In this document: piece by piece, positions 59,048-59,357 of the stretch
Layout of the letters: every line of letters begins with the position of its first letter
Numbering within the stretch: the stretch's first letter is position 1
Source: Escherichia coli
Lineage (GTDB): Bacteria > Pseudomonadota > Gammaproteobacteria > Enterobacterales > Enterobacteriaceae
Assembly: GCF_016026235.1 (NCBI RefSeq)
Contig: NZ_CP065613.1
Reading direction: 5' to 3' (one strand)
DNA length: 64,000 nt
Program-made: the position numbers and the translations under genes
The notes under the pieces: model-generated
What the model was told of the DNA's origin: nothing
The model's database searches: none
Seen by the model: the letters and a program-made list of their open reading frames with translations, nothing else

Positions 59048-59357
59048 CGGCGTGCGTGCCAGGTACAGTCGTTCGGCTGGAAAAATACGGGGGCTGAGCC
59101 TGCTGGCAACACTGAGCACAATAGTGCGGTGGCTTATTGGCTATCACGCTTAAAATAAAGGGGTAGATCTGAGACAGCAGGCCAACAGAATTAAAACGCG
59201 GCGGGTAATATCGTATCTGACATTAGCGAAGAATATCTTGCGATACTCCTCGCTAATTTTAAAACGAATGGTGCTGATCACCGTTCTTAATCACTTCGCC
59301 AGAACCGACCATAATATGGTGTTGGTTTATTAGCGCTGATTCATGGGGATCCCTCAG
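59048..59357 (+). mobile_element. decayed terminal fragment (~310 bp) of a third, divergent IS10-family element, truncated by IS1
   Basis: Ends with ggggatccctcag (reverse complement ctgagggatcccc, identical to the first 13 nt of the IS10-like end); plus-strand translation ...LSLLATLSTIVRWLIGYHA*NKGVDLRQQANRIKTRRVISYLTLAKNILRYSSLILKRMVLITVLNHFARTDHNMVLVY* is clearly homologous to the C-terminus of the IS10-like transposase. Confidence 0.65.

Follow-up and report, generated by a model that had tools for sequence, protein, structure and literature searches.

Results

Organization of the locus

The window analyzed here is a stretch of 64,000 nucleotides of Escherichia coli DNA, to which all coordinates below refer, and our subject is a 310-bp segment wedged between an IS1 copy and a sugar module comprising RpiR, PTS and NanE-like genes. 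The features on which the argument draws are the following.

34340-35633, minus strand: intact ISEc60 copy 1, 1294 bp, in the palindromic yjgN-valS terminator hairpin GGCCGGAGCATGCTCCGGCC (PGAP, 99.9% identity)
55406-56699, minus strand: intact ISEc60 copy 2, in the UG5 RT-nitrilase gene of a P4-like element
57736-58279, minus strand: P4-type psu gene with its 5' end clipped by IS1 (Pfam Psu PF07455, ORF list)
58280-59047, plus strand: IS1 copy of 768 bp with ends ggtaatgctgcc...ggagtcattacc, the left boundary of the relic (sequence, ORFs, PGAP)
59048-59357, plus strand: 310-bp, 3'-terminal remnant of an IS4-family, IS10-subgroup IS of the ISSfl1-like clade (ungapped blastn, PGAP)
59049-59333, plus strand: transposase pseudogene fragment corresponding to residues 304-397 of intact relatives (translation, BLASTP)
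59344-59357, minus strand (read from 59357 to 59344): terminal inverted repeat CTGAGGGATCCCCA, the end nearest the transposase 3' end (pattern search, end comparison)
59358-62706, no strand assigned: module of RpiR regulator, PTS IIC and NanE-like epimerase (continuous homology including the relic end)

The boundary on the left is exact, with IS1 running through 59047 and the relic starting at 59048, and on the right the relic ends 23 bp from the stop codon of the convergent RpiR-family regulator gene (59381-60205, minus strand). The P4-like element to which psu belongs begins at tRNA-Leu 51073-51157. The leuX island is shorter in the window than in the genome FORC_031, with the integrase directly after tRNA-Leu.

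The 310-bp segment encodes the tail of an IS10-type transposase

Read from 59049 on the plus strand, the segment carries the last 94 codons of a transposase, in the form of GVRARYSRSAGKIRGLSLLATLSTIVRWLIGYHA, a stop, NKGVDLRQQANRIKTRRVISYLTLAKNILRYSSLILKRMVLITVLNHFARTDHNMVLVY and a second stop; the first stop is a premature TAA at 59151-59153 and the second is the native terminal TAG at 59331-59333. The resulting peptide pairs with residues 320-413 of the 413-aa ISEc60 transposase (34363-35601, minus strand), with 42/94 identities (45%), 66% positives, no gaps and an E-value of 1e-22 (BLASTP), which bears out the statement in the earlier note that this DNA matches the C-terminal ~95 residues of an IS10-like transposase and contains one internal stop. 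When the whole window was searched with the ISEc60 transposase (tblastn), two full copies and the relic were returned, the latter at an E-value of 3.9e-17, and pairwise alignment of the relic with the ISEc60 tail at the DNA level gave about 59% identity (185/314). Alignment statistics no better than chance had been named as the outcome that would refute this resemblance. The local alignment score is 198, compared with 32 +/- 4.9 and a maximum of 59 over 1000 peptide shuffles. Chance or low-complexity similarity is refuted by the BLASTP E-value, the shuffles and the 88% nucleotide identity to an intact IS described below, so that we assign this reading no probability at all. The homology of the relic to IS10-subgroup transposases is confirmed as genuine.

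Profile searches gave a consistent picture for a fragment of this size. The NCBIfam model NF033591, on which the ISEc60 transposase scores 360 bits, matches the relic at an E-value of 2e-10 over profile positions 253-318 of 340, falling under the cut-off because the relic is only a 94-aa fragment, and Pfam DDE_Tnp_1 has no match to the relic peptide. Rfam at permissive thresholds returned zero matches across 57500-60500. A promoter and terminator scan of the 310 bp found consensus matches at chance level only, and the sole 'terminator' called in the relic corresponds to a palindrome in the IS end, GGGGATCCCC. In the genomes FORC_031 and FDAARGOS_943, PGAP treats the identical sequence as an IS4 or IS4/IS5 family transposase that is incomplete and interrupted by a stop, and its RefSeq label reads 'IS4 family transposase; internal stop; incomplete; missing N-terminus'. 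The relic is therefore already known, in the sense that public E. coli annotation marks a transposase pseudogene here.

The final bases of the segment, 59344-59357, are TGGGGATCCCTCAG. A search for CTGAGGGATCCCCA with up to 2 mismatches found 5 sites in the window, namely the four ISEc60 ends and the relic, against a chance expectation of 0.34.

Closest relatives of the relic

A longer, 740-bp allele of the relic is found in ATCC 8739. Megablast of this allele against 5426 complete E. coli genomes identified about 380 that carry a single match at 82-83%, and this match is an intact 1312-bp IS located between the rtT sRNA gene and narI (L004:1929-3240, E. coli SCU-306). The comparison with other genomes carrying a full-length relative, which had been suggested in the earlier note, thus yielded an intact element, of which the 310 bp of the relic correspond to positions 1003-1312. 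The narI-site IS has the ends CTGAGGAATCCCCAG and CTGAGGGATCCCCAT, encodes a 399-aa transposase (WP_001111620.1), and is 88.2% identical to the relic over 305 nt without gaps (IS positions 1008-1312) and 73% identical at the amino acid level, but only 82.7% identical to the 740-bp allele. It is the closest full-length E. coli relative that we found, although it differs from the relic in being intact and in occupying another locus. This element is present as a single copy at one fixed site in about 380 genomes, retains its full-length 399-aa ORF, and is flanked by the degenerate repeat CGCCGGAGCG / CGCCGAAGCA.

Two further intact elements are related to the relic. An IS of Salmonella enterica (plasmid pSARC14-41; WP_015059848.1, 397 aa) is 86.5% identical to the relic in nucleotides and 77% in amino acids and shares the position of its TAG stop codon; unlike the relic, it is intact, mobile (found on plasmids and chromosomes) and from a different genus. 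ISSfl1 from the Shigella flexneri virulence plasmid pWR501, whose name we know through PGAP labels, is the closest named element, at 76.6% nucleotide and 72% amino acid identity and with the same 14-nt terminus; it measures 1301 bp and is flanked by the 9-bp duplication CCTGAAGGG. At ~71% amino acid identity to the narI-site and Salmonella elements, ISSfl1 lies further from them within the clade they share. The three elements are 71-91% identical to one another and only 52-54% identical in amino acids to ISEc60 (51.5% for ISSfl1).

When the 241-aa conceptual translation of the 740-bp allele was searched against 5.8 billion proteins, the best matches were 397-aa Salmonella IS4-family transposases, at 74-76% amino acid identity. 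Nothing in this set exceeded 76%, and we found no intact member of the lineage to which the relic itself belongs. Among complete E. coli genomes the closest intact relative reaches 82.7-88%, and among PLSDB plasmids the best match is 83.7% over the full length.

We conclude that the relic is a decayed member of the ISSfl1-like clade, a sister clade to that of ISEc60. It might instead be an old, mutated copy of ISEc60, in which case the same IS would have struck the region three times. The shared terminus, the 45% amino acid identity and the presence of two ISEc60 copies within 25 kb are in keeping with such an origin, but the other clade is far closer to the relic (72-77% in amino acids and 77-88% in nucleotides, as opposed to 45% and ~59%), and the intact members of that clade are themselves as far from ISEc60 as noted above. 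Nor is the terminus diagnostic, since all four elements (ISSfl1, the narI-site IS, the Salmonella IS and ISEc60) carry the same 14 nt and the match is therefore a property of the clade at large rather than of ISEc60. The last 40 nt of the relic (59318-59357) are identical to the narI-site IS end at 38/40 positions and to the Salmonella IS end at 39/40. The pairwise identities refute the relic as a worn ISEc60 copy, and we regard that origin as extremely unlikely. Hence the earlier note was right that the active IS had an older, diverged relative of IS10 type at this place, a view that can be refined to the ISSfl1-like sister clade, and it was right about a terminal match; the identity it had described as the exact 13-nt terminus of the IS10-like element extends, however, to 14 nt and is not specific to ISEc60.

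The relic is also distinct from ISEc60, ISSfl1 and the narI-site IS. By the ISfinder convention, copies are assigned to the same IS or to isoforms of it when they are nearly identical, roughly at least 90-95%. The relic falls short of near-identity with ISEc60 (about 59% in nucleotides, 45% in amino acids) and likewise with ISSfl1 (77% in nucleotides) and the narI-site IS (88% over 305 nt, 82.7% over 740 nt), the latter being a distinct IS under any isoform threshold. It shares a clade with ISSfl1 and the narI-site IS and yet represents a different, decayed element.

Traits of the IS10 subgroup retained by the relic

The IS10 subgroup of the IS4 family, as described by De Palmenaer et al. 2008 (PMC2266710), comprises elements of 1200-1350 bp with termini that begin 5'-CT, a DDE triad with a Y-(2)-R-(3)-E-(6)-K signature, and a 9-bp target duplication. 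The surviving end of the relic begins with CT (CTGAGGGATCCCCA, 59357 to 59344), and its coding remnant has the transposase homology, at 72-77% amino acid identity to the ISSfl1 clade and 45% to ISEc60. The YREK signature, at residues 283-297 of the narI-site transposase, is missing, as the fragment starts 6 residues past the K. In length, 310 bp are left in the window and 740 bp elsewhere, compared with 1294-1312 bp in intact relatives. As to the target duplication, one end of the relic is gone in every allele seen; among the relatives, ISSfl1 has a duplication of 9 bp, whereas those of ISEc60 and the Salmonella IS read as 10 bp, or as 9 bp if a single ambiguous base is left aside. Lacking the catalytic residues, the relic belongs to the IS10 subgroup by descent only and not as a functional element.

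ISEc60 itself resembles the relic's clade in belonging to the IS10 subgroup, in its 14-nt terminus, in carrying the YREK motif (YSRRMQIEQNFRDEK) in the full element, and in its similar size. Its transposase is 36-37% identical to those of IS10A/ISVsa5 (IS10) over 85-89% of the length, with an E-value of about 1e-63, and its CT-initiated ends and 1.3-kb size fit the subgroup (PMC2266710), so that 'IS10-like', the label given to it in the earlier note, is a fair one. IS10 of Tn10 (IS10A / ISVsa5), which founded the subgroup, likewise has termini that start with CT and a DDE transposase of the YREK type; it is a distant relative, and its link to the relic runs through ISEc60.

Decay of the relic

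The part of the element that survives in the window lies wholly downstream of the DDE/YREK catalytic residues. Compared with the intact relative, it has accumulated 15, 6 and 16 substitutions at the first, second and third codon positions, with 26 codons changed non-synonymously and 9 synonymously, while in a control comparison of two intact relatives over the same stretch the corresponding figures are 4, 1 and 13, with a non-synonymous to synonymous ratio of 6:11. This pattern points to neutral decay under relaxed constraint. With the best intact protein at 76% amino acid identity, part of the distance between the relic and known elements could reflect true lineage divergence instead of decay. 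The relic is very probably non-functional debris, unable to encode anything useful.

Structure of the junction between IS1 and the relic

Simple insertion of IS1 leaves a flanking 8-9 bp direct repeat of target DNA. No target-site duplication accompanies the copy at 58280-59047: its left flank reads caggtgtca and its right flank cggcgtgcg, and the two flanks derive from unrelated genes, psu and the IS4 relic. IS1 supplies the first ~5 codons of the psu ORF (57736-58293), including the TTG start at 58293, and the Psu profile (PF07455) is covered at positions 6-181 of 182 by residues 6-180. This IS1 copy is itself defective, with an in-frame TAG at 58822-58824, and is annotated by PGAP as 'IS1 family transposase, frameshifted; internal stop'.

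The junction of IS1 with the relic is present in 16 of the 5426 complete E. coli genomes, and the sequence 59048-59500 is matched at 100% in many E. coli genomes that do not have the IS1. One of these is ATCC 8739, in which the relic is 740 bp long (L001:3573-4310), corresponds to positions 573-1312 of the intact relative, and reaches 430 bp further to the left, with the shared part 100% identical, TAA included. The additional part of this allele contains three further stops and two frameshifts; it keeps YSYRMKIEQNFRNEK (YREK), but VTDAGF has become VTYAGF, so that the second catalytic D is a Y. As the IS1-free allele is identical to the relic over the shared part, the element was dead and 5'-truncated before an IS1 event took ~430 bp from it.

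What kind of event this was can be narrowed down. That IS1 directly adjoins the relic, and that the relic is longer in IS1-free genomes, could suggest nothing more than the insertion of IS1 into the relic. Such an insertion should, however, have left a target duplication, and the left flank should be the left part of the relic, not a psu gene that has lost its first ~5 codons; furthermore, none of the 5426 genomes joins the left half of the relic to the left end of IS1. We therefore consider simple insertion very unlikely. IS1 is known to cause adjacent deletions and to recombine between copies. The missing target duplication, together with the 5'-clipped psu flank, argues for an IS1-mediated deletion or recombination, most likely an adjacent deletion or recombination between two IS1 copies, as judged from the behavior of IS1. 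The order of events, inferred from present-day alleles, is compatible both with IS1 having been first in the relic and with its having been first beside psu. The proposal that the relic had been truncated by IS1 is thus upheld for the last ~430 bp, while the earlier loss that reduced the element to 740 bp preceded IS1 and the role of IS1 was not that of a simple insertion.

The relic borders the RpiR-PTS-NanE module in every genome examined

In every genome examined, the relic runs on its right directly into the RpiR module, whereas its left side varies. Five alleles illustrate this.

ATCC 8739: relic of 740 bp; left neighbor, unannotated DNA beyond an enterotoxin pseudogene
The window: relic of 310 bp; left neighbor, IS1
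PRO_A-1374: relic of 286 bp; left neighbor, sgcX
NCTC86-type genomes: relic of 133 bp; left neighbor, a different IS1 junction
Ch1: relic of 130 bp; left neighbor, an esterase gene

The homology that spans the relic end and the module is 99.7% to ATCC 8739, 93.2% to PRO_A-1374 and 96% to strain Ch1, extending in the last case from 59228 to 62706 of the window. The divergence of the relic is in step with that of the module (93-96%), which makes the relic an old border feature. The relic is tied to the RpiR-PTS-NanE module and not to the leuX island, and the left-side truncations in other lineages arose independently.

In strain Ch1 (L012), the module and 130 bp of the relic are located in a different chromosomal island, near ugpB, at 96% identity. 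Since the IS end is present with the module at this second site, the module and the IS end moved or were exchanged together as one unit. In NCTC86 and many other genomes (L008:2288-3143), a second, independent IS1 junction is found, the left flank of which consists of a hypothetical gene and fic. With its different left flank, this junction identifies the relic border as a recurrent site of IS1-associated rearrangement.

The relic end lies at a constant 23 bp from the RpiR stop codon, and the relic is found with the module both in the leuX island and in the island near ugpB, diverging in step with it. This raises the question of whether the module arrived on a composite transposon, with the IS as one of its arms and the relic as the surviving inner end. 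At the far border of the module (about 62706), which follows a hairpin, neither tblastn with the closest intact transposase nor a terminus pattern search found a second IS arm or terminus. Moreover, a single old insertion, followed by transfer of the segment containing it, explains the linkage equally well. A composite transposon is therefore improbable in our judgment.

The ISEc60 copies are recent and unrelated to the relic

The two ISEc60 copies differ from each other by 1 nt, and in RefSeq the name 'IS4-like element ISEc60 family transposase' is attached to copies that are 99.9% identical. FORC_031, a genome that shares the IS1-relic junction, has both insertion sites empty; in FDAARGOS_943, which also shares the junction, the RT site has no ISEc60 and contains an IS1A copy instead, and the junction of ISEc60 with the RT gene is absent from all complete E. 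coli genomes in our collection. The genome of the window is accordingly closely related to the 16 strains with the IS1-relic junction without being any of these. Both copies are very recent arrivals and are unrelated to the relic. A related strain carries ISEc60 at 38 places, so that two copies within 64 kb are unremarkable. In the literature, we found only incidental mentions of ISEc60.

The earlier note had also proposed that the island was hit repeatedly by this IS family. This holds only in a loose sense, given that the ISEc60 copies are recent, that copy 1 lies outside the leuX island, and that the relic goes with the RpiR-PTS-NanE module instead of that island.

Some additional features of the insertion sites are worth recording. 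The duplications flanking the ISEc60 copies read 10 bp (GAGCATGCTC, GGGAAAACCA), or 9 bp if one G is counted as part of the element; the norm for the IS10 subgroup is 9 bp (PMC2266710). The gene hit by copy 2 encodes a UG5 RT-nitrilase defense reverse transcriptase (DRT; 52669-56848) in the int-psu hotspot of the P4-like element at leuX. This gene is split into two ORFs (52669-53217; 53358 onward) and further broken by ISEc60 at model position 913/958, and its RTasTM partner gene (56845-57534) is intact.

Discussion

We describe a 310-bp segment that very probably represents debris from the right end of an ISSfl1-like IS, with a history that can be laid out in four steps. Long ago, the element would have inserted just downstream of the RpiR-family regulator gene that heads the RpiR-PTS-NanE sugar module. 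It then became inactive and decayed neutrally, acquiring stops, frameshifts and, as seen in the longer allele, the change of the second catalytic D to Y; the left 570 bp were already gone in the ancestor shared with ATCC 8739-type genomes. In the lineage of the window, an IS1-associated event removed a further ~430 bp of the relic, presumably either through intramolecular IS1 transposition (adjacent deletion) or through recombination between two IS1 copies. The same event would also have deleted the DNA to the left of the relic and the portion of the P4-like element on the far side of psu, the lost segment being itself a reconstruction, and would account for the fusion of clipped psu, IS1 and relic that the junction now displays. 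The two ISEc60 copies are unrelated to the relic and inserted very recently; they represent another member of the subgroup.

If any activity is left in the relic, the sole conceivable one is that of a solo transposon end. The end of the relic is 14/14 identical to that of ISEc60 and inverted with respect to the ISEc60 end at 55406, and for this reason there is a slight chance that it may still serve the ISEc60 transposase as a usable end. Were this the case, the ISEc60 transposase could move or rearrange the 3.95-kb segment 55406-59357, comprising ISEc60, the RTasTM gene, psu, IS1 and the relic, or, alternatively, one-ended deletions could extend from the relic end into the RpiR module. The reading of the relic as the last trace of a vehicle that carried the RpiR-PTS-NanE module is weaker than that of a usable solo end.

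Taken by itself, the relic matters little, since the borders of islands commonly carry IS remnants and the pseudogene is already flagged in RefSeq. It does provide a stable marker that can date the border of the RpiR-PTS-NanE module, and its left side has been cut at least four times independently, twice by IS1, which offers an example of how IS1 sculpts the variable region beside leuX. Our analysis also corrects the impression of a long history of ISEc60 at this site, where the ISEc60 copies are recent arrivals. More broadly, it shows that the enterobacterial IS10 subgroup includes an ISSfl1-like clade, represented in E. coli both by old, dead copies and by a fixed, intact copy between rtT and narI.
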